Shown: positions 18,244-64,000 of the stretch, piece by piece | Layout of the letters: every line of letters begins with the position of its first letter | Numbering within the stretch: the stretch's first letter is position 1 | Origin: an uncultured Gammaproteobacteria bacterium | Lineage (GTDB): Bacteria; Patescibacteriota; Patescibacteriia; JACQRZ01 | Assembly: GCA_964621085.1 (NCBI GenBank) | Contig: CAZUKY010000001.1 | Span: 167,226-231,225 of the forward strand | Length of the DNA: 64,000 nucleotides | Direction: 5' to 3' | Made by a program: the position numbers and the translations under genes | Notes under the pieces: model-generated | Told to the model about the DNA's origin: nothing | Seen by the model: only the letters and a program-made list of their open reading frames with translations | Database searches by the model: none

Positions 18244-18257
18244 ATACGAGGAAGGGG

Positions 18258-19315: not shown

Positions 19316-19364
19316 ATAACTCTACTTTAAACCATTTGCCACGCAGTGCAAGGATGGGTATGAT

Positions 19365-19928: not shown

Positions 19929-20917
19929 AGTATGATTTTTCGTGCAATGCCGTTTGCCGCATCGACTTCTATGATATCGCCTTCTCGAAACACGCGTGTC
20001 GCTATTCGAGTGCCGGTAATCGTCGGTATGCCGAGTTCGCGCGCACAGATCGCCGCGTGACACGTGATGCCACCTTCGTCGGTAATGACGGCACCGGCAC
20101 GGGCGAATGCCGGCGCATACGTGGCATTGGTCATGACTGCAACAAGAATGTCTCCCTCGCCCACGCGATCCAGATCTTCCCGATTACGGACAATGCGCAC
20201 AATCCCGCGTGCCGTGCCCGGCTGAGCGCACGCGCCGCGCACCTCCGAAACACTCTCAAGCTGCTCATCGTCTTCCGGATTTCTCAGCCCCTGCTCGGCA
20301 AGATATTCCTGAAAGGACTTCTCAAGCATTATACCTTCGACACGAAGATATCCCTCGAGACGGCTCGACATCCTTTCTGCGGCCTCTGAGACATTCTCAA
20401 GATCGTCCAATGTTAGGACATGCGCAAGTCGCGGATCCAATCCTTCTTCTTGAAGCAGATCGGCAATGCAGTGCTCGATCTCTGCATCGAGCTCGTACAG
20501 GATTCCTTCGGAAAGATTTCGGGCGTGCCAGCTTTCAGGACAAGCCTTTACAAATGCATCGCTCACGACAAATACATAAAACGCCATCGCGCTTCCGATA
20601 AGCGCATGAATCTCGCGCAAATGTTCAAGCGTCACGTGATTTTTCAACTCCTTCAGTCGATGAATCTGTTCGCAAAATACCGTATTCTGTATTTCAAACA
20701 AACGATCATCCTCAATAAGTCGCTTCGTGATCGTCTCTTTAAAATACGCAAAATCGGATGCCCGATGGTAGAAATGCACGCGCGCGCCGTCATAACGGAA
20801 AATGACCGGATACTCCCACCCGAAATATTCTTTGAAATATTGTTTGTACCCCAACTCCCAGGCTGTGACTGAGAACAGGCTCAAATCTCGTTTTACTGTT
20901 GGACGCAAGAGATGCAT
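19925..20917 (-). CDS. PEP-utilizing-enzyme mobile (phosphohistidine swivel) domain protein with an unrelated ~240-aa N-terminal domain (paralog B')
   Basis: C-terminal GTARGIVRIV...ILVAVMTNATYAPAFARAGAVITDEGGITCHAAICARELGIPTITG is the PEP-utilizers His-domain signature with a catalytic His. Confidence 0.65.
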   Translation of the reverse strand: MHLLRPTVKRDLSLFSVTAWELGYKQYFKEYFGWEYPVIFRYDGARVHFYHRASDFAYFKETITKRLIEDDRLFEIQNTVFCEQIHRLKELKNHVTLEHLREIHALIGSAMAFYVFVVSDAFVKACPESWHARNLSEGILYELDAEIEHCIADLLQEEGLDPRLAHVLTLDDLENVSEAAERMSSRLEGYLRVEGIMLEKSFQEYLAEQGLRNPEDDEQLESVSEVRGACAQPGTARGIVRIVRNREDLDRVGEGDILVAVMTNATYAPAFARAGAVITDEGGITCHAAICARELGIPTITGTRIATRVFREGDIIEVDAANGIARKIIL

Positions 20918-21670: not shown

Positions 21671-22786
21671 TCATTGCGTGCGTTTTTCGAGAATTCTCAC
21701 CACTCCGCGATCTGCGTCAACTTCGACAATATCGCCGTCGCTGATTACTGACGTTGCGTTTCCGGTTCCGATGATGCATGGCTTCTTTAATTCACGGGCA
21801 ATAATCGCCGGATGGGAGAGGATCCCGCCTGTATCTGTTATGATCGCACCTGCGCGCTTCATCAACGGAACATAGCGCACGTCGGTACTCACGCAAACAA
21901 GAATTGCGCCTTCCGGAAAATCGAGACTGGAAACGGTTTCATCGGTAACGCGACACACCAGCCCCCTTGCAATACCCGAAAATGCGCTCACCCCCTTCAG
22001 TTCAGCGCTGTCTCCGCCTTGTTGAATAAATACATGCGGCGCTGGCGTGGGAATAGAGCGCGGCATCATGCGATTGAAATCAAAAAAATACAGATCATCA
22101 CCGGGAACAACCGCCTCGAAATAGCCCAGCAGATAGTTATTTGAAAACATCGCGTTGACCGCATCGCAAAGCGCATCTTGGCGCACGCTCTCCGCAACAT
22201 GGAGGTGGGCGACCATGCGTTCAACCTGAGCAATTGCCTCCTCATTATGCGCAGACCACTGCCACGTCTGGTAGTCGAAAAAGAACCGATACGCTTCACC
22301 CGTAAGTATGCCCTGTGAAAGCTGGTAGGGCGTCCCCTTGGCTATCTCGCCAAAGAGCGCATCTTCCTTGATGACGAGAAAAATCGACCAGCGAATGTCT
22401 GACTCATCGGGAAACACATGAACGGTATATGAATCCAGATCAATTTCTTGCGCACGGAACCATTGCTCGTAGCATTCCGCAATCGATAGCCCCCTATTGC
22501 GCAGCTTTGGAAGATCCGGCGTGTTGGGAATCAAACGAAAGGCGCAGCGCTCACTGCCATGATCCTGCAAAAGCCTGCGCACTGCATCGCTCTTTTCTTG
22601 CATTTCCCGCGCCGTAAAAACTTTCGGCGCACGAAATGGAACGCCGATAAGTCTGTTCAAGATCGAGAGGCGCTCTGTTTTTTCATTATCTTCCTTGCGA
22701 AATTCGGCAGACTCCTCAAGTTGTCCGATTTCGGCGAACCATTCGGTCATGGATGGGTGGTATGGTTTTGTTTTTGATTGAGACAT
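21671..22786 (-). CDS. PEP-utilizing-enzyme mobile-domain protein with a novel ~270-aa N-terminal (putative substrate-binding) domain (partner B)
   Basis: C-terminal GIARGLVCRV...ILVCVSTDVRYVPLMKRAGAIITDTGGILSHPAIIARELKKPCIIGTG swivel domain. Lies 22 nt downstream of the PPDK_N gene. Confidence 0.65.
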   Translation of the reverse strand: MSQSKTKPYHPSMTEWFAEIGQLEESAEFRKEDNEKTERLSILNRLIGVPFRAPKVFTAREMQEKSDAVRRLLQDHGSERCAFRLIPNTPDLPKLRNRGLSIAECYEQWFRAQEIDLDSYTVHVFPDESDIRWSIFLVIKEDALFGEIAKGTPYQLSQGILTGEAYRFFFDYQTWQWSAHNEEAIAQVERMVAHLHVAESVRQDALCDAVNAMFSNNYLLGYFEAVVPGDDLYFFDFNRMMPRSIPTPAPHVFIQQGGDSAELKGVSAFSGIARGLVCRVTDETVSSLDFPEGAILVCVSTDVRYVPLMKRAGAIITDTGGILSHPAIIARELKKPCIIGTGNATSVISDGDIVEVDADRGVVRILEKRTQ

Positions 22787-38692: not shown

Positions 38693-40414
38693 TCATTTGA
38701 CCGTCTTGGCTCGCATTGCAAGTCGCTCGTCAAGGGTTTGGACAAAACGGGGAGAGTAGTAAGTGAATTTGTTTATTTTCCGAGAATCAAAAAATGTGCC
38801 GGTCTCCTTTTCCGCAAAGTCCCGATTCTCATCAATAAGCGACTGGATTTCACCCCTGATGAAGGGCTTACTCCGGATATGCTTTCGGTCGGCCGCAATC
38901 GAATCCAGCGAAAGCCATCCCGTCGGCGCAACGTCTCCCTCCCGCCGGGATTCGAGCCTCCTTTTGATCAGCGCCACGAACGAAGGAGAGTAATAGGTTG
39001 ATGTATCTCCGGAATTACTAAAAAAATCATCAACGTTCCCTGATTTCAATTTCGGGTTTTCAGCCAGCAGCTCTGCGGCGATATCTGCAATGACCGGCCG
39101 TGAGGTCTTGAGAATCGGCTCGAGCGCCTTGCCGGTCTGCCACCCTTCCGGGGCATACGCGCCCTGCTTTGCGATTTCCTTCTTCAGCGCTTCTGCGAAT
39201 ATCGGTGAGAAGTGGGGCGTTTTTACCGTTGCACTCCAATACTCTTTCACGTGATCGGCAAGTTCCGGTCGTTCGACAAGTAATCGATCGATGAGGGGCT
39301 TTAACCCTGTCTCGCTTCGTCCCCCAATCTTTTGCTTCCCCAACGCTTTGAGCGTTATCCATCCCTCAGGCGCACGCTCCATGCTATTCATTCGCTCTTG
39401 TGCCATCTGGATAAGGTCCGGCGAATAGTAGGTTGTAAATCCAGATGTTGCATAAAACTCCTTTGCATGATCTTTTTGGAGTTCGGGATTCTCTTCGAGA
39501 AGAGCATCAATAACTTTTTGAATAGTTTTCTTCGTTCTTCCGCCGAGCCTTTCCGCTCCAAGCGTTCTGATTGCCTTCCAGGCATCGGGCGCTTTTTCTT
39601 TCTTGGCGAGAAGCGCTTCGATCTGTGTAATAAAGAACGGTGAGTAGTATGTCGTCTTTCCGATATTCGAAAAATACAGCCCCGTATGTTCATCCTTCCA
39701 CTCTGGATGTGATTTCAAAAGATCGTCGCATGCATTTTTTATTGTTTGCTCCGTCTTCCCCGCAAGTTTCATTCGACCGAGCGTTGCAGGCGTTTTCCAT
39801 CCCTCTGGCGCATTCTCGCCCATTACAGCAAGCCGCTCGCCGATCAGTCGAATAAATTCTGGTGCATAAAATTCGGTCGGACCAGCCTTGCTCTGAAACT
39901 TCTTCACATATGTCTTACGTGATGGGTCCTCGGACAAAAGCACTCGTACGGCATCTCCTGCTACCTTACCGCTTCGACCAAAACGATCGGCAAGAGTGGT
40001 AATGCTCAACCAGTCTTCCGGAGGATCCGGCAGCGGTTCGAAAAGTTCTGCATCAATTTCCGGATTATTAATATCGATCCGAGCAAACGAAGTTCCTACT
40101 GGAGCGGCGCGCTTCAGGAAGCGTGTCACACTCCGCCCATTCATCTCTACCCCATGGACGATAACCCTCTTGAGCGCGACAAGGCCGCCCGTCACTGTTA
40201 TGCATGGCGTCTCAACACCATCGATCTGGACCGTAACAAAGGTATCCGGCGGATATTCATCCTGGATAACGCGCAGGGATGGATACGGTTTGATATCAGC
40301 GACAAAAAAGGATGCGTTCGCAAGCTTAAACGCCTGATTAATAACAGAATGACGAAACTCCGGTCGCTCTACCCGTTCAGGAGCTTTCTCTGTTGGACGC
40401 TCGAGTGCACTCAT
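38693..40414 (-). CDS. Cytoplasmic tandem-repeat protein: ~125-aa N-terminal domain followed by six ~73-aa repeats. Novel, no family recognised.
   Basis: Repeat consensus read directly: A-P-E-G-W-x-T-x-x-x-L-G...L-L-x-E-x-P-E-L...T-T-Y-Y-S-P-x-F-I. No signal peptide or TM segment. Confidence 0.6.
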   Translation of the reverse strand: MSALERPTEKAPERVERPEFRHSVINQAFKLANASFFVADIKPYPSLRVIQDEYPPDTFVTVQIDGVETPCITVTGGLVALKRVIVHGVEMNGRSVTRFLKRAAPVGTSFARIDINNPEIDAELFEPLPDPPEDWLSITTLADRFGRSGKVAGDAVRVLLSEDPSRKTYVKKFQSKAGPTEFYAPEFIRLIGERLAVMGENAPEGWKTPATLGRMKLAGKTEQTIKNACDDLLKSHPEWKDEHTGLYFSNIGKTTYYSPFFITQIEALLAKKEKAPDAWKAIRTLGAERLGGRTKKTIQKVIDALLEENPELQKDHAKEFYATSGFTTYYSPDLIQMAQERMNSMERAPEGWITLKALGKQKIGGRSETGLKPLIDRLLVERPELADHVKEYWSATVKTPHFSPIFAEALKKEIAKQGAYAPEGWQTGKALEPILKTSRPVIADIAAELLAENPKLKSGNVDDFFSNSGDTSTYYSPSFVALIKRRLESRREGDVAPTGWLSLDSIAADRKHIRSKPFIRGEIQSLIDENRDFAEKETGTFFDSRKINKFTYYSPRFVQTLDERLAMRAKTVK

Positions 40415-41571: not shown

Positions 41572-42030
41572 TCAAAAACCAGGTTTCAAGAAAAACTCGA
41601 GGCTCGGCCCTCCCGTATCCCGCACATCCGAACCGTACAGCTCTTCCATTATCGTTATGAATTCGTCATCAGTTTTCGCGCGACGAACTCCAGGCAGGAA
41701 GTAGAAGATCGAACGATCGCTCTTCTCCCCGACAATAATGACCATTTTTCCGTCAAGGAATGCGGCTGCGAACCCGAAGCCAGTCTCGATATGCGCCCCG
41801 AGAAGGTCGTCGTCATACAGAACGACGAGGAGGTCTGAACTGCCGACGGCACGCAACATCGCAAGTGCTGCCTCTGCCGCTTTCTCGGGGTGGTTCTCGA
41901 AGGGCTTCGCGACGACATTCTTCGTCCAATCGTACGGTACGGTGAAGCCGTACTTCTCAAGCACCTGCTTGATTTGAGCGATGCGCTCCTCAGCCTTGTT
42001 CACCTTACCCGCAATGTACGCTGTTGACAT
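41572..42030 (-). CDS. Nucleoside 2-deoxyribosyltransferase-like protein (ORF opens at 42168; MSTAYIAGK start preferred)
   Basis: N-terminal YIAGK plus a D..LLGAHIETGFGFAAAFLDGKMVII segment matching the NDT-family active-site region (D/E..GT..E.G.A...GKP). Confidence 0.5.
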   Translation of the reverse strand: MSTAYIAGKVNKAEERIAQIKQVLEKYGFTVPYDWTKNVVAKPFENHPEKAAEAALAMLRAVGSSDLLVVLYDDDLLGAHIETGFGFAAAFLDGKMVIIVGEKSDRSIFYFLPGVRRAKTDDEFITIMEELYGSDVRDTGGPSLEFFLKPGF

Positions 42031-42049
42031 CTGGTTCTCCTCTCTTCGG

Positions 42050-42325
42050 CTAGGATAGCGTGCCGCGCAGGAGGTAGCCGGGAGTGCCGTTCTCCAGCTC
42101 GCTGTCGAGGATGAAGTAGGTCGTGCCGTCAACTTCGCACTCCCAAGCGTACTGCTCGCGGTGCTCATAGATCATCAACCGCTTGCGCCCGAGCAAAATC
42201 GCGCTGCCGCTGGGCAGACTCTCGCTGCGATTCCAGGCGAGTTGGCGCGACTCGGCGTTCTCGCGCGGCAACTCGAGCAGCCGAACGGGCTGAGCGAGTA
42301 CCGTGGTATTTTGCGGCGATGACAT
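42050..42325 (-). CDS. Small hypothetical protein (91 aa)
   Basis: ORF between tdk and the NDT-like gene on the same strand. No homology recognised. Confidence 0.35.
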   Translation of the reverse strand: MSSPQNTTVLAQPVRLLELPRENAESRQLAWNRSESLPSGSAILLGRKRLMIYEHREQYAWECEVDGTTYFILDSELENGTPGYLLRGTLS

Positions 42326-42417
42326 TAACTCGCACTCCTTTCATCTGGTCACTCATCCAAAGACGCTCGCAAGTATAAAAAGAAATGCAGCCTCTGTCAA
42401 TGGACTAATCCCTAGAC

Positions 42418-42969
42418 TCAAACGACATGGCACGTGCGGCACCGAGCCTCGTACTCCTCGTCGCCGACGAGCACCTGATCGCCTTCTGCCGGCGCCGGTT
42501 TTCCGCTTACCAGTCGCTGGGACATTGTGGCACGGTCGCCGCACACCATGCAGACAGCATCAAGCTTGAGTACGTCATCGGCGATTGCCATCAGATGCGG
42601 AACAACGCCGAACGGAACGCCGCGGAAGTCCATATCCAGACCCGAGAGGATCACGTGGACGCCGTTTTTGCGAAGCGTGTCGATAACATCCGCGATGCCG
42701 GGCGGGAAAAAATGCGCCTCATCGATGCCGACAACCTCTGCGCCCTGGGCTTGCGGCAAAATTTCATCCGGATGCGCAATGGGCGTTGCCGTAAAACAAA
42801 TGCCGTTTCTGCTGCACAGCTCTGTCGGCTTGTCCCATCGCGTATCGATCGACGGCTTGAAAACCGCAATACGTTTCTTAGCAATCGCACTGCGCCGCAA
42901 GCGGCGCAACAGCTCCTCGCTCTTGCCCGAGAACATGCACCCGACGATTATTTCCACGCTTCCCTGCAT
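42418..42969 (-). CDS. tdk: Thymidine kinase (ORF opens at 43104; MQGSVEIIVG start preferred)
   Basis: P-loop GCMFSGKSEEL, IDEAHFF, and C-terminal Zn-ribbon CMVCG...CRTCH. Confidence 0.85.
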   Translation of the reverse strand: MQGSVEIIVGCMFSGKSEELLRRLRRSAIAKKRIAVFKPSIDTRWDKPTELCSRNGICFTATPIAHPDEILPQAQGAEVVGIDEAHFFPPGIADVIDTLRKNGVHVILSGLDMDFRGVPFGVVPHLMAIADDVLKLDAVCMVCGDRATMSQRLVSGKPAPAEGDQVLVGDEEYEARCRTCHVV

Positions 42970-43118
42970 ACAAAAAATTACATTCGTCAGATCGATTATC
43001 GCGCGTGTATACCTTAACGTCAATCGCGCAGTAGGGTGAGAGTGGGCGCACTTTTGACATTCAAGCGATTTTTTGCTATAATTATATGATATTAGGTCTG
43101 GCACTATACGGAGGTGTA

Positions 43119-43571
43119 ATGTTCGAGGTAGTCGCTAAGCTAAAGGTGGTATACCTGACCGTGGGCACTCCCACCGCGGAGGATACTAAGTTCCTCTGCG
43201 ACGCCCTCGCGTCGCTTCACAATACGAATGCGGACGAAATCGCAGTCGAGACGATCAACCTGACCGGGAAGAGCTTTGAAGCCCGCGGCAAGTGCGCGCG
43301 CAAAGAGGCTGCAAAGGGGCAGTTGATCATCGCTGACATGTCGACCGGCGAGGCGTTCCGCACCTTGCGCCAGTGTCTGATCGCCGACATCCCCTACTAC
43401 ATCCTGCACGGCGACCGGAAGAAGCGCTCCCTTCGCCTCATCAACGGCGAGCAGGATACGACGGTCTGGCCGAAGAAGGAGCGGCAGCGCCTCGTCACAC
43501 GCGAGACCTCATCGGCCACGATGACCATCAGCGAACGGAAACCGGAGCGCATTCCCTACCGCGACGACTAG
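43119..43571 (+). CDS. Hypothetical protein (150 aa)
   Basis: GGAGG RBS 5 nt before the ATG at 43119. Followed by a terminator hairpin. Confidence 0.4.
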   Translation: MFEVVAKLKVVYLTVGTPTAEDTKFLCDALASLHNTNADEIAVETINLTGKSFEARGKCARKEAAKGQLIIADMSTGEAFRTLRQCLIADIPYYILHGDRKKRSLRLINGEQDTTVWPKKERQRLVTRETSSATMTISERKPERIPYRDD

Positions 43572-43583
43572 GCACAGACGCAC

Positions 43584-43616
43584 AAAGGGGCTGTCCCACA
43601 GGACGGCCCCTTTATT
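43584..43616. terminator. Bidirectional intrinsic terminator between convergent genes
   Basis: aaaggggctgtcc / ggacggccccttt 13-bp stem (one G-U) with loop caca. Followed by T-runs on both strands. Confidence 0.55.
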
Positions 43617-43639: not shown

Positions 43640-45208
43640 TCACTCAATCTCCTCTTTTTTCTCTTTGATGAACGAGAACCACTCTTCGGTGATCTCGATG
43701 AATGCCTGGAGCGGCAGCTCGATGAGCACGTCGAAGAGAAAGACGAAGACATTGACGCGGGAGATGTTGAACGAGAGCCAGTGGCCGACTTGCACGATCG
43801 GCATGGAAAAGGTGTCCAGCAAGGTTCCGAGGAGCGTCTGGCGGGGCTTGAGAATGATCAGCTCGCGCACCTGGCGGCGCAAGGTAATCCCGAAAAACGT
43901 GATAAGAGAGAAGAACAGGAAAAAGATAATGCCGCTCATCAGGTTGAAGTTCAACTTGTGCAGCACCCAGGCGACCGCACCGAATGAAATCGCATACACG
44001 GCGAGGTAAAAAATGGTGAAAAAAACGGAGAGGACCCGGTTGCGGCGGGGATCCGAATTTTTCTTCGGGACGAAAATCTCTGCCGGCGTTTCCTTGTAGA
44101 GAATCTCTTTGACGGCCTGAACAATGGCGCGCGTATTGGCATCGCTCGGAAAAGAAACGGTAAACGCGATGGCGGCGAGAAGAAACGGCGGGAACAAGAT
44201 ATTGATCAAGAGCGGCACGCCGTGAATCTCGCCTGCCGTCAAGAGGTCGTAGGGCAGCTCAACGGCCAGACCTAACACCATCTTGGTTAAAAAGATATAG
44301 ACAAACGCACGGATTGTGCGCGAATAGAGCCGCCGATGCTGCACGGAGTAGAGCCCCTCGCAAATACGCGTCGCCTCGCGCTCGAGGACATCCGGATCCA
44401 TGATCGCTTCGGGATTGTTTTTTGCAATCGTCAAAAGCACGATAAAGGGAATCCGGTGCCGGCGGAACTCTCCCTGGAACTTTTTGTTGAGCGGATGGCG
44501 AATGAGAGCGTCGATCTTGCGCGCCACGTTCGCGTACTCCGTCGCGCGCGTGCGCGGATCAGTGCTCGTGTCGATCCACTCGGGGAAACTCTGCTTCAAG
44601 ATGAAGTAGCGAAGCCGATGGATGTCGGGACGCAGGAGGATGCGGTATGCGGCAATGAACATCTGCGACTTGCGCAAACGCTCGTCCGCTTCGTCTTGAG
44701 CTTGGGGAGTCAGCGGCTCGCACTGTTCGTACATGAGGCGAACCAGCGCCTCTTCGTGATCCATGGGCGAGAGGCGCTCATCGATCGCGCAGGCAGCCAT
44801 CGCGATGAGCCAGTCGGAGTCTTTGTCTGAAAGGGTTTTTTCGCGCCGAAGCGACTCGACGATTCGCAAGTAAAAGGCGAGGATCTCGGCGACCTCGGAT
44901 ATCGCACGGTGGCCCAGTGTATTGTTCGGAAAATACCGCGATCGCACCAGTTCGCGTACCAGTCCGTTTGCGATCTTTTCGGGCTCATCCTGCAGGATCA
45001 GCCGCCGCGAGAGGATCCGCCGGATCGCATTTTGCCGCAGAAGATGCTCGTCGGCATAATCGATGACGCTGCGGATCTTTTCGTAATAAAACGCGATCGC
45101 GCCGACCGCTTCATTGATGACGATTTTTTGCTCGTCCTCGATCTCGCGCGGCTTTTTTTTCAAGGCAGCCGCATACCGCGAAAAGCGTTCTGTGAGTGTC
45201 AGAGGCAT
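43640..45208 (-). CDS. Membrane protein: large cytoplasmic N-terminal domain plus 4-5 C-terminal TM helices. Hypothetical; in an operon with the VirD4-like ATPase.
   Basis: Hydrophobic helices in the last ~200 aa (for example FPPFLLAAIAFTVSF and SVFFTIFYLAVYAISFGAVAWVL). Confidence 0.5.
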   Translation of the reverse strand: MPLTLTERFSRYAAALKKKPREIEDEQKIVINEAVGAIAFYYEKIRSVIDYADEHLLRQNAIRRILSRRLILQDEPEKIANGLVRELVRSRYFPNNTLGHRAISEVAEILAFYLRIVESLRREKTLSDKDSDWLIAMAACAIDERLSPMDHEEALVRLMYEQCEPLTPQAQDEADERLRKSQMFIAAYRILLRPDIHRLRYFILKQSFPEWIDTSTDPRTRATEYANVARKIDALIRHPLNKKFQGEFRRHRIPFIVLLTIAKNNPEAIMDPDVLEREATRICEGLYSVQHRRLYSRTIRAFVYIFLTKMVLGLAVELPYDLLTAGEIHGVPLLINILFPPFLLAAIAFTVSFPSDANTRAIVQAVKEILYKETPAEIFVPKKNSDPRRNRVLSVFFTIFYLAVYAISFGAVAWVLHKLNFNLMSGIIFFLFFSLITFFGITLRRQVRELIILKPRQTLLGTLLDTFSMPIVQVGHWLSFNISRVNVFVFLFDVLIELPLQAFIEITEEWFSFIKEKKEEIE

Positions 45209-45232
45209 AGAGTGGTGTATCCTGGCAGAGAA

Positions 45233-47005
45233 TTACAAAGCCCAATCGTCGATCGGGGGGGCGGGTTTTTCCGGATTCTTGGTCGGTGCCGGAGGCTCGG
45301 GCGGCGTAACTGCCGGCGCTGATGGCGCGCGATCGGCAGTATCGCGTTCCCGACTCTCGGCCGGCTGCACTGACGGTTGGCGCCCACCGTCGCGGTGCGG
45401 CTCTTTGCCCTCCAGATTTTTCGTCGGCGAAGCGCTTGTCAGCGCGGATCGCACCGACGAAGATACGGGCGATGGCCGTTTTTTTCGCTTCCGTTTTCGC
45501 GGCGCATCTTCATCGCGTCGCGGCTCTGCAGCAAGATCGCGGAGAGAGAGCGTCTTTTCCGGTGCAGTTGCCCGAGGCGGCATCGGCACTGCACGATCAG
45601 GCGCAGCGTGCGAAAAACCCGAACGCGAGGGCGGCGGAATAACCCGCCCGACTGGAGCAAAGGGACGCTGCGGCATCGCCGCCGCCTCGGCTGCACGCCG
45701 CTCTTTTTCTTTCTGATCCATCGTCTCGGTCCAGCGCCGGATCTTATCATCGACGATCTCGCGGGCGATCGCGTATCGCTCGCGGCTGACCTTGATCACT
45801 TTGTCCAGATTGCCGGTCTTTTCCTCCTCTGACAACGGTGGCAATCCGATCGCGGAAAAAGGATCGGAGGAGACGCCATCGATCATGAGTTTGATGTAGT
45901 AATTGAACTTCGGAATATTCACAAGATCTTCTTCCGTGAATCGCGGCGTAAACTCCTTGACCAAGAAATCCGCATCCGATGCGCCAACACGAAACGCGAT
46001 CATAGTGCCGACGTTGCCAAAGACCGCCGCTGAAACTTTTTCATCCAGCTGCTCGATGTACTGATGGGCGACAATAAGGTTGAGTCGGTACTTTCGCGCT
46101 TCCGACAGGATGTTGGCGAAACTCTCGGTCGCGAAATTTTGAAACTCGTCGACGTATAGGTAGAAGTCGCGGCGTGCGGCCTCGGGCATCTCGACGCGTT
46201 CCATCGCCGAGAGCTGAATTTTGGTGACAAGCATGCCGCCGAGCAAGCGACTGTTGTCCTCGCCGATCCGGCCCTTCGACAAATTCATGATCAGGATCTT
46301 TTGATTATCCATGATCTCGCGGATGTGAATCGATGACTTGACCTGGCCGACGATATTCCGAATCAGGGACGCGGACAAGAACTGACCGACCTTGTTTTGC
46401 ACCGGCGCGATTGCCTCGCTCGCGTACTTGTCGTTCCAGCTCGCAAAGTCATTGACCCAGAACGCCTTTACGACCGGGTCCTGGATCTTTTCGATGACCT
46501 TTTGGCGGTAGAGTTTGTCTGAGAGCATGCGATTCACGCCCAGCATGGTGCTTCCCGGATAGTCCAGGAGCGCGAGCAAGGTGTTGTTGAGAATGTACTC
46601 CATACGCGCGCTCCACACGTCTGGCCAGATTTTTTTGAAGACGCCCATCAGGCCGGAAGAGACCAGATGCTTGTAGCGCTCCTCGACCGTCTCGAGAATA
46701 TTGAACGCGACCGGATACTCCATATCCGCGGGGTTGAGATAGACCACGTCATTGATGCGGTGCGGCGGGATGTACTCCAGAATTTTTTCCGCCAAATCGC
46801 CGTGCGGATCGACAACGCCGACACCCCGGCCGTTGCGGATATCGTCGATGATCATGTTCTCAAGCACGGTTGACTTTCCCATGCCGGTTTTACCGATCAG
46901 GTACACGTGGCGCCTGCGGTCGTCTGTTTTGATGCCGAAACGGCGACGCTGGTTGCGGAACGTCGTCTCGCCGATGGCGGTAATTTCATTCTGATACAAA
47001 GACAT
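45233..47005 (-). CDS. VirD4/TraG/TraD-like type-IV-coupling-protein-family P-loop ATPase. Cytoplasmic form with no TM segment and a Pro/Arg-rich disordered C-terminal tail.
   Basis: Walker A YLIGKTGMGKST at residue ~37, Walker B LYVDEFQNF, and ARKYRLNLIVAHQYIEQL, characteristic of the T4CP family. Confidence 0.65.
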   Translation of the reverse strand: MSLYQNEITAIGETTFRNQRRRFGIKTDDRRRHVYLIGKTGMGKSTVLENMIIDDIRNGRGVGVVDPHGDLAEKILEYIPPHRINDVVYLNPADMEYPVAFNILETVEERYKHLVSSGLMGVFKKIWPDVWSARMEYILNNTLLALLDYPGSTMLGVNRMLSDKLYRQKVIEKIQDPVVKAFWVNDFASWNDKYASEAIAPVQNKVGQFLSASLIRNIVGQVKSSIHIREIMDNQKILIMNLSKGRIGEDNSRLLGGMLVTKIQLSAMERVEMPEAARRDFYLYVDEFQNFATESFANILSEARKYRLNLIVAHQYIEQLDEKVSAAVFGNVGTMIAFRVGASDADFLVKEFTPRFTEEDLVNIPKFNYYIKLMIDGVSSDPFSAIGLPPLSEEEKTGNLDKVIKVSRERYAIAREIVDDKIRRWTETMDQKEKERRAAEAAAMPQRPFAPVGRVIPPPSRSGFSHAAPDRAVPMPPRATAPEKTLSLRDLAAEPRRDEDAPRKRKRKKRPSPVSSSVRSALTSASPTKNLEGKEPHRDGGRQPSVQPAESRERDTADRAPSAPAVTPPEPPAPTKNPEKPAPPIDDWAL

Positions 47006-47020
47006 TGCGGTTGTGTTCAG

Positions 47021-48448
47021 TTATACGAACGGGATATTTGAAGGCGGTTCTTGCTTGTCCGCATCTTCACCTTCGGCTGGCGGCGGGATATCGACAACAA
47101 CTTTCTCCGCCGCGCGATAGACCGGCTCTTCGGAGAGCGGCAGCCGCGATGGGGGTTCGGCGCGCTTCACCTCGGCCTTACTGATCAAGGGAGCCTTGAT
47201 GTCGATCATCGGAAAGTGCCAGATACTTGCGACTTCTTCAATATTCAGGATATACGTGGGTCCGCCGCCAGAGGAGCGGCCGCGATAATTCTCCCACACC
47301 TTGCGCTGGCGCACTGCAACGCGCTGCGCGACGCGAAAGTAGTTCGCCTTTGTCGCGGTGTACTTATCGACGCCGAACGCATTCATGTCCTGCGTATTGA
47401 ACTGCTTGAACGAACCCATAACGCCACCGACCATGCGCTGGCGGTTCATCAGCTCTTTGGGCGCGATACAGATGACGCGCACCTTCGCGGCAAAACCAGG
47501 CTTTGAGGCCTTGATCCCGATTTGCTCCACGACCGAGCGTTCGGCCGGAGACAGGTGCTGGATTATCGACGGGGGTGCTGCCGGATCTTTTTTCGGTTCG
47601 GCGGGTTTTGCAAATGAGATGCCCAGAATCTTTTCCAACGGCCACGTTACCAGGCCGAGAACAGCGTCTGTTATTTTTTGCACACGCGACTTTGGTTTTG
47701 GCTTCTCGGGGGCGCCGATCAGTTTTTTGATCTCATTCATGCTGCGCTCCTTCCAGTCGCCGCCTGTCGGCACGAGCGGAATCTGGATAAAGATGGACTC
47801 GCCCGGCCGCAGCGTTCCCAAAAACTCAAGGAGCGACGCAAGCGGATCCTTGAACGCCTGGGAAATCTGGTCGTAAAACGCCGGATAAGTCCGGATCGGA
47901 TAGACGTCGTCCTTGGAAAGGGACAGTTCCGCGCCCCACATGTCGTACGTCTCGTCCGGCCAATCCTGCGGATACTCGTTCGTATAATCAGACGCCTCGA
48001 CGATTTCGGCATCCGGATACTGCGCGAACACCGCCGCTTCCAGAATGTCGCGGTACTTGACCGGAATGCGCACGTAGTACTGGATAAACCCTCCGCGGCT
48101 GATGATCTCGACAGCAAAGTTTTCCTGAAACTTGCCCTTCCAGTACTTGTCGATCAGGTTGCCGTATCCGCTGTAGAGCCCTTCAAGGTGCGCGAAGATA
48201 TTCTCGACCGCTTTTGGCGTCTGCTCGGTCTGCTTTGGCACGTTGATGGCCAAGAGCACATACTGAATGCTTGCGGCATAGTTGCCCTGGATCTCATTCA
48301 TCCACATCTCCCACAGTCCCCGAATGACAAACACGGCGATCAGGATCCAGCCGCCATTGATGAGAATGAACCAAAATGTTTTGAGCGGGTTTGAAAAATC
48401 AAGAGACGCGAAAAAATACAGGATATCCATACCTTCGTATATTAGCAT
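47021..48448 (-). CDS. Membrane-anchored hypothetical protein (N-terminal TM helix plus ~430-aa domain). First gene of the putative three-gene translocation module.
   Basis: TM helix FWFILINGGWILIAVFVIRGLW. No family recognised. Confidence 0.5.
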   Translation of the reverse strand: MLIYEGMDILYFFASLDFSNPLKTFWFILINGGWILIAVFVIRGLWEMWMNEIQGNYAASIQYVLLAINVPKQTEQTPKAVENIFAHLEGLYSGYGNLIDKYWKGKFQENFAVEIISRGGFIQYYVRIPVKYRDILEAAVFAQYPDAEIVEASDYTNEYPQDWPDETYDMWGAELSLSKDDVYPIRTYPAFYDQISQAFKDPLASLLEFLGTLRPGESIFIQIPLVPTGGDWKERSMNEIKKLIGAPEKPKPKSRVQKITDAVLGLVTWPLEKILGISFAKPAEPKKDPAAPPSIIQHLSPAERSVVEQIGIKASKPGFAAKVRVICIAPKELMNRQRMVGGVMGSFKQFNTQDMNAFGVDKYTATKANYFRVAQRVAVRQRKVWENYRGRSSGGGPTYILNIEEVASIWHFPMIDIKAPLISKAEVKRAEPPSRLPLSEEPVYRAAEKVVVDIPPPAEGEDADKQEPPSNIPFV

Positions 48449-48527
48449 ATTTTTCGCTTATTTTCAATACAAGAAAGCCCTCGATTCCGAGGGCTTCCAT
48501 ATGATTTTCCGCAACGCTCCGCGTGTA

Positions 48528-49424
48528 TTACGCGCCTTTTTTGCCGAAACGCTCATGCCATGCCATCAGAATCGGCGAGGCAAAGAAAATAGACGAGTAG
48601 GTTCCGATGCCGATACCCAGGATCAAGGCGAGCGAGAACGTTTTCAGCGACTCGCCGCCCAGCACATAAATCGCAGCGAGTACAAGCAGGACGGTAACAG
48701 ACGTATTGATCGAGCGGACAATGGTCTCGTTCAACGACTTATTCATGATCTCCTCAAACGTTCCACGATATTTCAGCAAGTTCTCGCGCACGCGGTCGAA
48801 GACCACGATGGTGTCATGGACCGAAAATCCGAGAACGGTAAGAAATGCAGGGATAAAAGCGCTGGTGATCTCAACGCCTGCAAAGTGGCCCAGGGCGGCA
48901 AATACGCCAAGAACAAAAATCAGATCGTGAAGAAGCGCAACAATCGCCGCCGCGCCGTATTTCCACGAGGATACCGGATAGGACACCTTGCGGAATGTGA
49001 TCGAGATGTACAGGAGGATCATGCACAGTGCAAAGATCAGTCCCCAAAACGACTTCGTTTTCAGCTCCTCCCCAATCACCGGTCCGATCGACTCGAACGA
49101 CTCCTCGGTAAGCGCCGGGTCATCGGCGCGCAGCGACTGAAGGATCTTCTGGTGTGTCTCCTCGGAAAGCGTCTTTGCGCGAATCAAAACGCCTTTCTCC
49201 CCTGCAAACGAGATCTCGTATTCTGCCAACCCCGCCTCGACGAGACGCGCGCCGATCGCGCCGGTATCCGGACGCGTTTGCGCATACTCGACTGACAACT
49301 GGCTGCCGCCGGTGAAGTCGATGCCCAGCCGAAGCCCCCACAGGGACAAGCTCACGATACCGGCAGCCATCAGTGCAACCGAGATGGTCAGCCAGATATT
49401 TCTTTTTTGAATGATATTGGTCAT
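48528..49424 (-). CDS. secF: Protein translocase subunit SecF (ORF opens at 49532; MTNIIQKRNIW start preferred)
   Basis: SecD/SecF family TM core with conserved GIDFTGG periplasmic loop. Confidence 0.85.
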   Translation of the reverse strand: MTNIIQKRNIWLTISVALMAAGIVSLSLWGLRLGIDFTGGSQLSVEYAQTRPDTGAIGARLVEAGLAEYEISFAGEKGVLIRAKTLSEETHQKILQSLRADDPALTEESFESIGPVIGEELKTKSFWGLIFALCMILLYISITFRKVSYPVSSWKYGAAAIVALLHDLIFVLGVFAALGHFAGVEITSAFIPAFLTVLGFSVHDTIVVFDRVRENLLKYRGTFEEIMNKSLNETIVRSINTSVTVLLVLAAIYVLGGESLKTFSLALILGIGIGTYSSIFFASPILMAWHERFGKKGA

Positions 49425-49444
49425 ATGTATCTTTTCCTGAACAA

Positions 49445-51574
49445 CTATGAGGCGCGGGGCTGAGCCGGCTCTGCATTCTCTCCCGCGGATTTTGCCGGCG
49501 CCATCCACAGCGCGCGGGGGATCTTTTTCCATCCCGCGAAGAACTTCAGGAATATGCGCGTCAGCGAAATTGCGGAGAACATGCTGACCAGAATGCCGAT
49601 GGCAAGCGTCAGGGCGAATCCCTTGATCAGGCTAGCCGAAAACCAGAAGAGAATGGCGCACGTGATCAGCGACGCGACATTACTGTCCCGAATCGAGGTC
49701 CAGGCGCGCCGGAAGCCGTCCCTCAGGCTCGCATCAAGGCCCTTGCCGCTGCGAAGCTCTTCTTTCATGCGCTCGAAGATAAGAACGTTAGCATCCACCG
49801 CCATACCGATCGAAAGAATGAATCCCGCAATGCCCGCAAGCGTCAGTGTCACCGGCCAGATCTTGAAAATCGAGAGCACGATCGCGGTATAGATAAGCAG
49901 TGCGCATACCGCCAGGAGGCCCGGCAGCCGGTAAAAGAAAATCATGAAAATCACCACGAGCAAAAAGCCGAACAAGCCGGCGTACAGGCTCTTTTCCAGC
50001 GACTCGGCGCCGAGCGTCGGGCCGATCGTCTGCTGGCTGACCAGCGTGATGGGTACGGGAAGAGCGCCGGTATTGAGGCGCTGCGCAAGAAGCTTTGCTT
50101 CCTGAAGCGTGAAGTCCCCTTGAATGACTGCCCGGCCGTCGGTAATCGCCTGGTTCACTCGCGGCACGCTGATCGGCTGACCATCCAAAAGCACGGCAAC
50201 CGGTTTTTCGATATTGCGCTTGGTGATCTCGGCAAAGAGCTTTTTCCCTTCGTCATTGAACTCGAGGCCGACTTCCGGCAGGCGGGTCAGCTGGTTTGAC
50301 TCGACATACGCGCGTTTCAGCTGTTTGCCGGTAAGCCCCGTATCCTTCCACATGCCACCATCGGCGGGAAGATAGTCGCTCTCCGATTGCGCGCGGACCA
50401 AAATGCGGGCGATCGAGTACTCGTTCAACGGGCGCGCATCGGTACGATGAATCACATGGTACCCGAACTCAGTCTCGACCGGTGCGGAAATGTCTCCATT
50501 TTTCAAGGCGTATGCGGCCTCCTCAAATGGCGGCACGAGCATGCCTTTCGAGATCCAGCCCAGACTCCCCCCGGATCCCTTGCTTCCGGAATCCGTTGAG
50601 TACTCCTTCGCAAGTTCCCCAAAATTCTGCGGTGTCGCTTTCTGGCGCACTTCTTCGATTTTCTTTCGCGCGTCTTCTTTGGAAAGCTCCGATTCGCAGC
50701 GCGAAGCGCCCTGATAACAGATCAGGATGTGGCTGAGCGCAAGCTCTTCGCCGCTCGTGCGCGTATCCAGGAGTTTCACGACGTTGTACCCCTCGGTGTT
50801 TTTTACCGGAGACGGCGCGATCTCTCCTTTTTTCAAGCTCTTGGCACTCTCCAAAAGTTCGGAGAGCGGCACGTCCGCTGTTTGGGATGAGATCCAGCCG
50901 AGCTCGCCGCCCTTTTGGCTCGTTGCCAAGTCTTCGGAGCGATTTTTCGCAAGATCGACAAAATTGGCGCCGCTCGCACGAGCGTCTTTCAGGATCGCCT
51001 CCGCTTTTGCGCGCGCCGCGGCATTGTTTTTTTCAAGTTCTTTTTTCTGCTCGGGCGTCAACTCGGTGATCCGCTCTTCGGGCGGCATCTCTTCTTTAAA
51101 TTCAAGCAGCGGCGTCTCGCCGATCATACGGATAGCACTCGCCGTGTCCTGGACCCCGGCAAGCTCGACTGCGACGCGATACGAATCGCCCGTTTTCACG
51201 GTGCGGACAATAGGTTCTGCAACGCCAAAGGCGTTCACGCGGCGCTCGATAACGTCGCGCACCCCTTCGACAGCGGCCGTCTGCTCGCTCGGTGCGACTT
51301 TCGACAGATCCGTATCATACACCAGATGCGTCCCGCCTCTCAGATCAAGGCCGAGACGGAACGAGTCGGGAATGGCGGTAAAAGAAATCTGAGGAACCAC
51401 ATCTGCCGGCAGGCCCCATGACTGAAGAGTGGCATTGATCGGCTCGCGATAATGATTGAGCGCGTCAGTGCCTGAATAAAAGGCGGTGAAGGCAAAAAGA
51501 ACGGCGATGCCCAGCATCGTCCAGCGCAACTTGCCGCGCGGCGAGGGGGCGAAAATCTTTCTTAATATATTCAT
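49445..51574 (-). CDS. secD: Protein translocase subunit SecD carrying two tandem parvulin-type (PpiC/PrsA-like) peptidyl-prolyl isomerase domains inserted in the periplasmic head
   Basis: SecD TM1 and head motif LGLDLRGG. Next comes an insert with GGELGWISSQ...EGYNVVKLLD and SHILICYQGA...GGSLGWISKGMLVPPFEEAAYALKNGDISAPVETEFGYHVIHRTD (parvulin signatures). SecD resumes at VAVLLDGQPISVP plus the 6-TM core. Confidence 0.85.
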   Translation of the reverse strand: MNILRKIFAPSPRGKLRWTMLGIAVLFAFTAFYSGTDALNHYREPINATLQSWGLPADVVPQISFTAIPDSFRLGLDLRGGTHLVYDTDLSKVAPSEQTAAVEGVRDVIERRVNAFGVAEPIVRTVKTGDSYRVAVELAGVQDTASAIRMIGETPLLEFKEEMPPEERITELTPEQKKELEKNNAAARAKAEAILKDARASGANFVDLAKNRSEDLATSQKGGELGWISSQTADVPLSELLESAKSLKKGEIAPSPVKNTEGYNVVKLLDTRTSGEELALSHILICYQGASRCESELSKEDARKKIEEVRQKATPQNFGELAKEYSTDSGSKGSGGSLGWISKGMLVPPFEEAAYALKNGDISAPVETEFGYHVIHRTDARPLNEYSIARILVRAQSESDYLPADGGMWKDTGLTGKQLKRAYVESNQLTRLPEVGLEFNDEGKKLFAEITKRNIEKPVAVLLDGQPISVPRVNQAITDGRAVIQGDFTLQEAKLLAQRLNTGALPVPITLVSQQTIGPTLGAESLEKSLYAGLFGFLLVVIFMIFFYRLPGLLAVCALLIYTAIVLSIFKIWPVTLTLAGIAGFILSIGMAVDANVLIFERMKEELRSGKGLDASLRDGFRRAWTSIRDSNVASLITCAILFWFSASLIKGFALTLAIGILVSMFSAISLTRIFLKFFAGWKKIPRALWMAPAKSAGENAEPAQPRAS

Positions 51575-51699
51575 ACAACGTGGAACGCGAAGAGGAAAAT
51601 TGCAATAAAAACGGGCTCCAAACAAACTAGAAATTGAGTATATCCAAAAACAAAAAAAAGGCAATGCCTTTTTCTTGTAATAAGGAGGGTTTAAGGCTG

Positions 51700-61822: not shown

Positions 61823-62500
61823 CTAGGTTAATGGATACTTCTTTGTTGCACCACTGATCATACTGCAAAACTCATCTATTTCGGTAGCATACTCCCTCAG
61901 AAATACTCGAAGGTCATTCGAAAATGCATCGGGAAACTTTTCCATCTCAGATGAAAGGTCGTTCAAAGTATACCACAATACACCTTGCGCTTCGCCGTCT
62001 GCCGGCTTAACACTGCCATCGTAGAGACCAAAGTAGACATGGGTCTTATTTGCGATTTCAACTGTTTCGTCGCCAAACACTTTTTTGAGATAAAATATTT
62101 TACTCTGGATGTGCTTCACAATGGCAATAGTCTGCAGGTAATTTTGCAAGAGATCAAATGCCTTTCTAAAGTCTTCTGTTGACTTCATGACAATGGAGGG
62201 AGTCTGCAGCTCCTGCACTGTTTCAACCATTACGGTAAAATCTGGCGCATCCCCGTAGCGGATATGACCACCCATAGACTTGTCAATCAACCCTGGATTA
62301 TGGGCTTTATGGTAATTCCTCTTCTGAAGCAGGAGCTCCTTCCTTGTGTTGAAAATAAAGATTGCAACAATATCAGCGGCCCGTGTTGGCTTTTGTGCAT
62401 TCCGATAGGCGCTGATCTGTTCAGCATAGAACTCATCACGATCCATCGGTATTGCCGAATCAGGATTGTTTAGGAAGTATGTATTAATTATCTCTTGCAT
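61823..62500 (-). CDS. NUDIX-superfamily protein (divergent Nudix box, IDI-type-1-like). AT-rich segment.
   Basis: KAHNPGLIDKSMGGHIRYGD...VMVETVQEL resembles the Nudix motif of isopentenyl-diphosphate isomerase type-1-like hydrolases. Low G+C. Confidence 0.45.
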   Translation of the reverse strand: MQEIINTYFLNNPDSAIPMDRDEFYAEQISAYRNAQKPTRAADIVAIFIFNTRKELLLQKRNYHKAHNPGLIDKSMGGHIRYGDAPDFTVMVETVQELQTPSIVMKSTEDFRKAFDLLQNYLQTIAIVKHIQSKIFYLKKVFGDETVEIANKTHVYFGLYDGSVKPADGEAQGVLWYTLNDLSSEMEKFPDAFSNDLRVFLREYATEIDEFCSMISGATKKYPLT

Positions 62501-62645
62501 AGCGTCTGAATGTATTCTTGGGCACTATTTTTATGCACCATAACAGCGATTGAAGTCCTAGCTTAATAGAGTAGATCGCTCCTATAGTATTTCTGTATCG
62601 TAACTCATAGTTCTCCGCGCCGTGACAGCGGCCGAAGTGATATTT

Positions 62646-63104
62646 TTATGAGGTGCTACTTAGCTTAATTTCTTCCGCAAGTCGCATCAGCTCCGACATA
62701 TCAGCCTGCGGACCTAATTGAGTGGATACATAACCCTCGTACCTCTCGAAAAACACCTGATCTTTCACCCACATCTCCTGAAATTTTCCCTTAATGCCAT
62801 GAAGTGGATACAACTTAATATGTGCGTCATTTACACTCATTCCCTCCATGACCATTGCCACCCTAGAAATCTGCAGTCCCTTTTCAATCATCTTCGCTAC
62901 AGATTGTGAAGTAAACATAAAATCCGAATATACATCCTTCGGTAAGTCAAATGCATAGGAATCATAATGTACTTTTGGAAGTACAAGCGTCATCCCTCTC
63001 GTGTTTGGATTCACGTCTAATATTGCTAGGAATTTTTCATCTTCCCAAATTCTAGTAGATTCAATTTCCCCAGCTACAATTTTGCAAAAAATACAATTCC
63101 GCAT
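62646..63104 (-). CDS. HIT (histidine triad) family protein with a degenerate triad
   Basis: N-terminal CIFCKIVAGEI. The triad region reads NDAHIKLYPLHG rather than the canonical HxHxHxx. Confidence 0.65.
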   Translation of the reverse strand: MRNCIFCKIVAGEIESTRIWEDEKFLAILDVNPNTRGMTLVLPKVHYDSYAFDLPKDVYSDFMFTSQSVAKMIEKGLQISRVAMVMEGMSVNDAHIKLYPLHGIKGKFQEMWVKDQVFFERYEGYVSTQLGPQADMSELMRLAEEIKLSSTS

Positions 63105-63291
63105 AACATTTCACTATTTATTATGACAACGTTTGAAGTGCAATTTTATGTATGCATGCGGCACTCATTCCTTAAAGCGCTCGGGATCATGTTCGATATC
63201 TGGACGATTTGAAAGTTTATGTCGTCGACTTTTGATCCATGATACAAAGTTCTTTGCATATTACCTACGCGCCGCGACAACGCTTGTAGTG

Positions 63292-63798
63292 TTAATTTAA
63301 CGGATATTTTAATCTGCGTATTACGGGATATATAATTGAATGGCAGCTTCTCTCATCTAGATCCTCGAGGGGCTTCCATTCAATCTTACTGATCTCGTCG
63401 CCGTCATACGTATTGATGACTTCGATATCTTGCTCTGGCCAGAGAAGTTCCGCAAGGTATACCATAATTACGGAGTGATAGAACTTTTTTTCGTAACGGT
63501 GATAGAAGTTACTTTCGCTTACATGAAATGGCGTGTCAGACAACGTAATCGAATATCCCGTCTCCTCATAAACCTCTCGCTTAATCCCCTCTGCAATACT
63601 CTCGCCTTCATCCACGCCACCACCTGGCAATTCCCATAATATGTTCCACGTTGGAACAACCATGAGGACCTTATCACATTCTGATCGGACAAGACCATAT
63701 CCCGAGATTCTCCAATAGACTCTTTCCCCTTGAGGAAGTTGGTAGGGCTGACCATTCGCGTCAAGAAAAACGTTGAGGGGATTAGAATTATTTTGCAC
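63292..63798 (-). CDS. NUDIX hydrolase
   Basis: Nudix box WELPGGGVDEGESIAEGIKREVYEETGY. Confidence 0.8.
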   Translation of the reverse strand: MQNNSNPLNVFLDANGQPYQLPQGERVYWRISGYGLVRSECDKVLMVVPTWNILWELPGGGVDEGESIAEGIKREVYEETGYSITLSDTPFHVSESNFYHRYEKKFYHSVIMVYLAELLWPEQDIEVINTYDGDEISKIEWKPLEDLDERSCHSIIYPVIRRLKYPLN

Positions 63799-63839
63799 AT
63801 TATGCTCAATGGCACTTTTTGAAGTGCTATCTAAATGGA

Positions 63840-63998
63840 TTATTCGCCTTCATCGTCTTCCTCGCATTCGGGACGCATATCCTCCAAATCGCCAAATATA
63901 TCTCTTGCCACTTCAAAAGCATCTTGATCTTTTGCGGCAAACCATATCCAAGAGGACGCTCCTTCCATAGAATCGCACGATACCAAAAGATCATCCGT
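63840..63998 (-). CDS. 3' end of a gene entering from the right edge (…ARDIFGDLEDMRPECEEDDEGE*), hypothetical
   Basis: Manual minus-strand translation is open for 52 codons from the window edge to TAA at 63840-63842. Acidic C-terminal tail. Confidence 0.3.
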   Translation of the reverse strand, partial: TDDLLVSCDSMEGASSWIWFAAKDQDAFEVARDIFGDLEDMRPECEEDDEGE

Positions 63999-64000
63999 GA

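Follow-up and report, generated by a model that had tools for sequence, protein, structure and literature searches.

A475 and B590, two proteins encoded side by side in the genome of an uncultured patescibacterium (contig CAZUKY010000001.1), are probably the two halves of a single membrane-tethered ATPase of the VirD4/TrwB family, fixed in the patescibacterial chromosome and serving as an accessory coupling or translocation motor for nucleic acids. We analysed a 64-kb stretch of this 239.6-kb contig (hereafter the window), to which the results on absent genes refer. The A475 gene (47021–48448, minus strand) is followed after 15 bp by that of B590 (45233–47005, minus) and, after another 24 bp, by that of C522 (43640–45208, minus); the names give the protein lengths in residues. 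In the open reading frame (ORF) table these lengths, coordinates and orientations, and secD and secF upstream on the same strand, are those given in a preliminary description of the locus, which had proposed a transmembrane (TM)-less coupling ATPase flanked by two membrane proteins.

The ATPase B590

Judged by its sequence, B590 is a TM-less ATPase of the VirD4/TrwB type, that is, of the type IV coupling proteins (T4CPs). Hydropathy analysis gave no segment above the TM threshold, as had been described; the 'TM' flags of some B590 orthologs mark hydrophobic strands of the core and not anchors. The Walker A motif GKTGMGKST (residues 38–46; 46868–46894, minus strand) has G38, K39, T40, G41, G43 and K44 invariant among 32 diverse orthologs, while the Walker B motif FYLYVDEF (residues 281–288; 46142–46165, minus) aligns with the Walker B region of TrwB, and the T4CP box ARKYRLNLIVAHQYIEQL (residues 303–320; 46046–46099, minus) with GRKAGLRVVAGLQSTSQL of TrwB. 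All three motifs had been recognised in the preliminary description, and only its literal 'QS..QL' has to be corrected to QY.EQL.

Three T4CP models of Pfam scored above their gathering cut-offs on B590: TrwB_AAD_bind with 38.8 bits (cut-off 20.5; E = 6.8e-10), TraG-D_C with 26.9 bits (cut-off 22) and T4SS-DNA_transf with 25.8 bits (cut-off 20.1). The HerA model DUF87 was marginal, with 24.8 bits versus a cut-off of 23.2 and below the T4CP models, and FtsK_SpoIIIE gave no match at E ≤ 0.1. Sequence and profile searches of the PDB returned significant scores for T4CPs alone (TrwB and DotL, TrwB being the best); HerA appeared at E = 0.1 and VirB4 did not appear. Using hhalign, a profile of the 32 orthologs aligned with R388 TrwB over residues 25–323 (probability 94.9%, E = 4.4e-8), and with R388 TrwK/VirB4 over the P-loop alone (probability 1.5%). 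The VirB4 model TIGR00929 reached 16.9 bits (E = 1.4e-3) versus a cut-off of 643 bits. Since profile and structure-database searches agree, we regard the core of B590 as T4CP-type and not as VirB4-, FtsK- or clearly HerA-type. The Pfam and hhalign alignments extend over the region of the TrwB all-alpha domain (B590 residues ~100–250), with low column confidence there. No NurA-like neighbour of the ATPase was seen.

B590 therefore has the Walker motifs and the RK..R...Q..QL box of R388 TrwB and VirD4, but not their N-terminal two-helix TM domain. Its TM helix is carried by the adjacent A475, which also contributes a VirB4-like N-terminal domain in trans, and its own tail is basic and Pro-rich.

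The upstream protein A475

A subfamily of TM-less T4CPs is recognised whose members act together with a neighbouring membrane protein, an example being TraJ/TraI of pIP501 (PMC7434980). The A475–B590 locus has the same layout, with the gene of a TM-less TrwB/VirD4-type ATPase beside that of a membrane protein, its presumed tether. Unlike the small membrane protein of the pIP501 pair, however, A475 is a protein of 475 residues that carries, by precomputed Pfam assignment, the domain DUF8128 (PF26449), as do most of its listed homologs. Hydropathy analysis gave one TM helix in all, TFWFILINGGWILIAVFVI (residues 24–42; 48323–48379, minus strand; score 2.21 in a Kyte-Doolittle window of 19 residues), in line with the N-terminal anchoring that had been claimed for this protein.

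In a Foldseek search with the predicted structure of A475, the 13 best matches were all entries of the R388 TrwK/VirB4 complex (probability 1.00, E = 5e-5 to 2e-3). According to the model, the cytoplasmic domain of A475 has a fold like that of the VirB4 N-terminal domain, the part of VirB4 nearest to the membrane components of a type IV secretion system (T4SS). In comparison with VirB4/TrwK, and with TrsD and TrsE of the pGO1-type Gram-positive T4SS, the A475–B590 locus thus pairs a VirB4-like front domain with an ATPase that is not of the VirB4 type, and does so in two separate genes.

Two short motifs characterise the C-terminal part of A475. LNIEE-x-A-x-x-WHFP (residues 401–413; 47210–47248, minus strand), found in the homolog alignment, has E404, E405, A407, H411, F412 and P413 invariant in 47 homologs. 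P-x-N-(L/I)-P-(F/I/T) (residues 469–475; 47024–47044, minus), found by comparing homolog tails, ends the protein, with P469, N471 and P473 kept in at least 90% of the homolog sequences. It follows a disordered linker (predicted local distance difference test score below 60 over residues ~420–475) that is often acidic in DUF8128 homologs, and the conserved peptide is plausible as a candidate docking short linear motif.

A DUF8128 profile search retrieved 3,537 clusters at 50% identity from among 1.84 billion representatives; the best 150 clusters were all stand-alone proteins of 369–691 aa. A literature search found no publication on DUF8128, PF26449 or PF23477 (the last being a domain of B590 orthologs, see below).

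Linkage and fusion of the two genes

We surveyed 80 species-representative genomes or loci containing the ATPase, seeking homologs of A475 and C522 by iterated hidden Markov model searches. In 38 of the 80 loci, distributed over many clusters of B590 sequences, the gene directly upstream of the ATPase codes for an A475 homolog, and the pair recurs in Nomurabacteria and Komeilibacteria contigs.

The two proteins are fused elsewhere. PHROG 5156, a profile of 824 positions, aligns with A475 at positions 74–323 and with B590 at positions 403–818. The 825-aa gp156 of Bacillus phage G matches A475 along its residues 30–165 (E = 3e-9) and B590 along its residues 381–755 (30% identity over 379 residues, E = 4e-46). 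The junction motif of A475 is found in gp156 as LN(I/V)xE...(H/R)(F/L)P and precedes the ATPase domain in the fused homologs (LNVQEMSQFIHLP in phage G gp156, LNIEELSGIVRFP in the Bacillus plasmid protein described next). On a 65-kb plasmid of B. subtilis, a 913-aa 'DUF87' protein matches the A475 profile over residues 56–313 (probability 95.7%) before its ATPase, and its gene lies upstream of TcpC/D/E-like conjugation genes. A further candidate, an 812-aa protein of an Embleya plasmid, has its gene flanked by those of a VirB4-like ATPase and a Replic_Relax protein, and its N-terminal half gave a weak match. No A-like N-terminus was detected in the B590 homolog of a haloarchaeal plasmid. Gp156, gp27.4 of Bacillus phage SPO1 (likewise PHROG 5156) and the 913-aa protein are built from the same DUF8128-like and B590-like modules as our pair; unlike it, they are single polypeptides, encoded on mobile elements near VirB4-like, Replic_Relax or Tcp genes.

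Taken together, A475 is a genuine partner of B590, providing a membrane anchor and a VirB4-type N-terminal domain that is joined to the ATPase in other organisms. If the locus encodes such a protein in split form, the TM-less ATPase is therefore its C-terminal half, and the preceding gene supplies the anchor and N-terminal domain. The start of gp156 corresponds to about residue 86 of A475, past the TM helix. Because gp156 joins its A-like domain to a cytoplasmic ATPase and begins beyond this helix, we place the globular part of A475 in the cytoplasm.

The 913-aa protein was also considered as the T4CP of pLS20 and ruled out, as the pLS20 T4CP has 786 aa and two N-terminal TM helices. The fused proteins of SPO1 (L082:2747–6284) and of the Embleya plasmid (L086:3771–7289) are each followed by a Replic_Relax gene (PF13814), which suggests that an ATPase and relaxase-like pair is conserved on mobile elements.

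Where no A gene adjoins the ATPase, its neighbours are NrdD with a radical-SAM activase (NrdDG), an RNase T-like exonuclease, a GT2 glycosyltransferase, DivIC and a DD-carboxypeptidase, or HIT and NUDIX genes. Divergent analogues of A475 or C522 beside the ATPase were ruled out in these loci; small TM proteins of 114–121 aa that precede the ATPase in one clade bear no resemblance to A475. A protein of ~700 aa with ~13 predicted TM helices and no Pfam match is encoded upstream of the HIT, NUDIX and ATPase genes in one Patescibacteria clade (L032:2820–4946 and 22 other loci).

Transcription unit and neighbouring genes

The A475, B590 and C522 genes appear to form a transcription unit of their own, with hairpins at both ends. 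The interval between secF and A475 contains a terminator-like hairpin with an 11-bp stem (48473–48498, minus strand) and, at the A475 start, the promoter-like site TTGAAA-17-TAATAT with a TG element (48439–48467, minus; a consensus match only). Past the C522 stop lies a GC-rich hairpin, GGGGCCGTCC-tgtg-GGACAGCCCC, followed by TTTGTG (43581–43613, minus). It was read by eye, having been missed by the terminator scan because its T-run is short, and it separates C522 from a convergent plus-strand ORF. C522 thus appears to be co-transcribed with the pair.

C522 consists of a soluble helical N-terminal half and 4–5 TM helices at residues 298–506, within its C-terminal 225 residues, which agrees with the C-terminal helical bundle of the preliminary description. 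Its predicted model is confident and all-helical, without a meaningful structural neighbour (a novel fold); only 101 homologs are detectable, and no family could be assigned. A C522 homolog stands next to the ATPase in 5 of the 80 loci, all from close relatives (Uhrbacteria), and homologs with ~30% identity adjoin unrelated genes (MscL/BipA or COX). This rules out the three genes as a unit: of the two flanking membrane proteins proposed as partners, A475 stands and C522 falls. We regard C522, from this gene-context evidence, as a lineage-specific passenger in the transcription unit and not as a conserved member of the module.

The genes of SecF (48528–49532, minus strand) and SecD (49445–51664, minus) precede A475 in the same direction and span 48528–51664; they are a conserved neighbour and are given here as context only. 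This arrangement could reflect a protein-export module in which A475 and B590 work with SecDF, and the order secD-secF-(sigma)-A-B is indeed kept in 27 of the 80 loci and in the Nomura- and Komeilibacteria contigs. However, secF is separated from A475 by the hairpin and the promoter-like site, Nomura- and Komeilibacteria have a sigma-70-family gene inserted at this point, and the synteny block holds mnmA and alaS as well. The ATPase lies far from secDF in 42 loci, and we know of no Sec component in the T4CP family. A role in Sec-dependent export is therefore most improbable; given the hairpin and promoter-like site, the sigma-gene insertion and the presence of mnmA and alaS, we read the adjacency as inherited gene order, not as the functional link that co-direction with secDF had suggested.

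SecD itself, with 739 aa, is a long protein in which two parvulin-like stretches (GGxLGWIS...FGYHVI) occur, and its orthologs in related contigs (L091:3138–4802; L092:3024–4712) carry Rotamase Pfam matches. On these two grounds a peptidyl-prolyl isomerase appears to be inserted in SecD of these bacteria.

Conservation and distribution

Compared with the window proteins across 22 genomes that have secD-secF-A-B in common, B590 showed a median identity of 69%, SecD of 50.5%, SecF of 48.6%, MnmA of 43.7% and A475 of 37%. The first ~425 residues of B590 include well over 100 columns that are invariant across the 32 diverse orthologs. More than 8000 homologs of B590 were found, the closest in Candidatus Uhrbacteria and other Patescibacteria; among the best 120 listed, identity was 58–83% where given. 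GC content is uniform, and the flanking genes are housekeeping genes. Downstream of the module come tdk, a gene resembling nucleoside-deoxyribosyltransferase genes, mnmA, the gene of a repeat protein, and alaS. Elsewhere the window contains genes usual for a chromosome (Mur ligase, PBP, MgsA, ClpB, PriA, glycosyltransferases and one tRNA). When 23 window ORFs, among them the 13 longest that looked real, were scanned with Pfam, housekeeping and cell-envelope genes were found and no VirB4, VirB6 or relaxase, bearing out the earlier statement for this window. Neither VirB4 nor a relaxase was seen within 6 kb of the ATPase in the related loci inspected. By these comparative data the module resides in the chromosome of Patescibacteria and is passed on vertically. 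In this the pair departs from TraJ/TraI of pIP501: it is far better conserved than plasmid T4CPs and lies outside any conjugative operon.

Beyond the Patescibacteria, B590-like ATPases are carried by Bacillus phages and by plasmids of Streptomyces, Bacillus, Staphylococcus, Clostridium, haloarchaea and Sulfolobus, where their genes often adjoin VirB4-like, PrgI, Tcp or Replic_Relax genes. The locus could accordingly be what is left of an integrated conjugative element or a prophage, a reading that the homologs and fusions on such elements would suit, or an anti-phage defence ATPase (MADS mad8- or HerA-like), as the match of B590 to the PADLOC mad8 profile (1.5e-17) might indicate. We consider either hardly credible. 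The protein is vertically conserved at 55–83% identity in housekeeping synteny across several candidate phyla, and no integrase, relaxase, other MADS gene or compositional anomaly was seen in the window. Nor were there signs of patchy presence among strains, or of att sites or integrases flanking the locus in relatives. A475 and C522 have no PADLOC match and the neighbours are housekeeping genes.

Genes of nucleotide salvage recur beside the ATPase. In the window these are tdk and the Nuc_deoxyrib_tr-like gene (41572–43104, minus strand); in other lineages they are NrdD, NrdG and the RNase T-like exonuclease (9–11 loci) or HIT and NUDIX (19–24 loci), and a Komeilibacteria contig has a pyrimidine nucleoside phosphorylase near the ATPase. 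As these represent only about four independent contexts, we treat the neighbourhood as a lead only.

Relation to the patescibacterial secretion system

VirD4-like T4CP homologues have been reported by Quinonero-Coronel et al. in 2,918 of 3,035 Patescibacteria genomes, at about two per genome (PMC12102498). A VirB4-based T4SS is present in ~80% of genomes, with T4CP homologues in ~500 more genomes than VirB4; only 148 of the 5,713 homologues lie near virB4, and exaptation was suggested (PMC12102498). In ABY1 the virB4 locus is near comF, recG and radA (PMC12102498), and for this reason the locus studied here is not the ABY1 virB4 locus.

In the saccharibacterium Southlakia epibionticum, transposon sequencing by Wang et al. 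classified SEML1_0293 as non-essential (PMC10633639 supplement). This protein has 921 aa, with TrwB_AAD_bind from residue ~402, and its gene is directly downstream of a sigma-factor gene (PMC10633639 supplement), the position that the A–B pair takes in the Nomura- and Komeilibacteria contigs (L091, L092). SEML1_0293 is thus a probable fused ortholog of A475 and B590. In the same organism a second T4CP-like paralog (SEML1_0142), the T4SS cluster and a canonical FtsK are essential, while comEC is non-essential; the T4SS cluster was described as having 'no recognizable coupling protein' (PMC10633639).

These data bear on the possibility that A475 and B590 serve the essential patescibacterial T4SS (VirB4/TrsD/VirB3/VirB6/VirB2, whose genes lie elsewhere) as its dedicated coupling protein and recruit protein effectors or DNA that are then passed to the host bacterium. 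The T4CP-family core of B590 would fit such a role, the VirB4-like domain of A475 would suit docking in the T4SS inner-membrane complex, T4CP genes often lie away from virB4, and homologues are present in nearly all Patescibacteria genomes. Yet the probable ortholog SEML1_0293 is dispensable where the T4SS cluster and SEML1_0142 are not, T4CP homologues outnumber VirB4 across genomes and seldom lie near it, and a basic tail with a zinc ribbon resembles a nucleic-acid binder more than an effector receptor. We deem this role unlikely, though it deserves serious consideration.

A pump for chromosome segregation at the septum, replacing or supplementing FtsK, would account for the very high conservation of the motor, a member of the FtsK-HerA superfamily, and for its position near divIC and a DD-carboxypeptidase gene in one lineage. 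B590 has no FtsK_SpoIIIE match, however, and in S. epibionticum the canonical FtsK is essential, whereas the pair's probable ortholog is dispensable. We therefore hold this function to be very unlikely.

Substrate, mechanism and function

The tail of B590 (residues 431–590; 45236–45715, minus strand) is rich in P, A, R, S and K and, by composition, disordered. With 30 P, 20 R and 11 K in its 160 residues, it corresponds to the long Pro/Arg/Lys-rich tail of the preliminary description. The tails of 39 of the 80 orthologous ORFs, among them 28 of the 38 that have the A gene beside them, contain a CxxC-x17-CxxC zinc ribbon (PF23477, zf_Tbcl_2; consensus CSRCGK...PDG.RP.YCKDCL in the ortholog alignment). 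B590 keeps the LSLxDL motif (as LSLRDL) and the basic patch (RKRKRKKR) and has no ribbon; measured against its orthologs, it has lost it. That the substrate is nucleic acid or nucleoprotein is suggested by the chemistry of the tail, the family of the ATPase and the relatives beside relaxase-like genes.

We propose that A475 would be held in the membrane by its single N-terminal helix and would expose the VirB4-type domain to the cytoplasm, so positioning the motor. B590 would dock on it, possibly aided by the C-terminal PxN(L/I)PF peptide of A475, and would oligomerise in the manner of T4CPs, presumably as a hexamer. The tail, with its zinc ribbon in orthologs, would bind the nucleic-acid or nucleoprotein substrate, and ATP use by B590 could then feed this substrate to, or draw it from, a membrane channel encoded elsewhere, such as the patescibacterial T4SS or ComEC. 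Because the probable ortholog is dispensable, we favour an accessory role in DNA uptake or donation over an essential T4SS function or chromosome segregation.

A parallel in overall design is CedD of Sulfolobales, which combines a TM segment, a VirB4-N-terminal-like domain and an ATPase and is essential for DNA import (PMC11868833). A475 and B590 together have the same parts, likewise chromosomally encoded, with an ATPase of the FtsK/HerA superfamily. CedD differs in being one polypeptide with a HerA/CedB-like ATPase, and its sequence likeness to our pair is limited to the P-loop region. No CedA- or CedB-like genes were seen at the A475–B590 locus.

The two proteins might accordingly be a stand-alone, Ced-like motor that imports or exports DNA independently of the T4SS, together with ComEC, type IV pili or some other channel, and so serves transformation or the scavenging of nucleotides. 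The shared architecture argues for this, as does a weak match of B590 to the NCBIfam model CedD (NF053655; E = 1.4e-7, residues 10–95 only). SEML1_0293 and comEC are both dispensable, and nucleotide-salvage genes recur beside the ATPase. On the other hand, the CedD match scores 30.6 bits versus a cut-off of 600, the neighbourhood signal comes from few contexts, and no channel or pilin gene is linked. We are doubtful of such a motor, without dismissing it. The bolder view that DUF8128 and the ATPase form an ancient chromosomal DNA-translocation motor of Patescibacteria, T4SS-independent and Ced-like, which imports or donates DNA (for example in scavenging host nucleotides) and preserves an intermediate state between VirB4 and VirD4, is speculative and in our estimation improbable.

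Several observations weigh against the interpretation of A475 and B590 as halves of one accessory motor. In 42 of the 80 loci, falling into two tight clades (29 and 12) and one outlier, no A gene adjoins the ATPase. No T4SS, relaxase or competence gene lies within the window. The link between A475 and VirB4 is structural only, as sequence profiles detected no relationship between A475 and TrwK. SEML1_0293 is identified as an ortholog by domain positions and synteny, not by alignment. Finally, the extreme conservation of the ATPase core is atypical for T4CPs, described as heterogeneous and normally divergent (PMC7434980), and is hard to square with a gene that can be dispensed with in the laboratory.

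TM-less T4CPs with membrane partners and abundant orphan T4CP homologues in Patescibacteria are already known. We found no publication that describes DUF8128 as a membrane-anchored partner with a predicted VirB4-N-terminal-like fold, the apparent relation between split and fused forms across Patescibacteria, Bacillus phages and plasmids, or the joining of a VirD4-type motor to a front half of the VirB4 type. Patescibacteria are ultra-small and host-dependent, and they account for a large part of the bacterial diversity that is uncultured. The analysis assigns to the widespread DUF8128 a fold and a role, as the membrane-anchoring, VirB4-like front half of one orphan T4CP, and indicates that the same protein is split in ABY1 and Paceibacteria and fused in Bacillus phages and plasmids and probably in Saccharibacteria. 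It offers a two-gene target for genetics, probably present in the one tractable species as SEML1_0293, and connects T4SS-type motors with DNA traffic in these organisms in a way that can be tested. We regard this as an incremental structural and evolutionary insight, not as a new kind of machine.

Other features of the window

The plus-strand ORF that converges on C522 (161 aa; 43086–43571) has no family match and is directly preceded by a perfect sigma-70 consensus, TTGACA-17-TATAAT with a TG element (43054–43082, plus). The repeat protein between mnmA and alaS is a 573-aa ORF without Pfam match (38693–40414, minus), made of about six tandem repeats of ~65 aa that each end in T-(Y/F)-Y-S-P-x-F (APEGW...LG...TYYSPxF). 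GC content dips to 0.47 at 18001–20000 and to 0.42 at 62001–64000, compared with a window mean of ~0.54. Two paralogous ORFs (19925–20917 and 21671–22786, both minus) have as their sole domain a C-terminal PEP-utilizers mobile domain, and a 486-aa protein resembling them follows the ATPase in 10 other loci.

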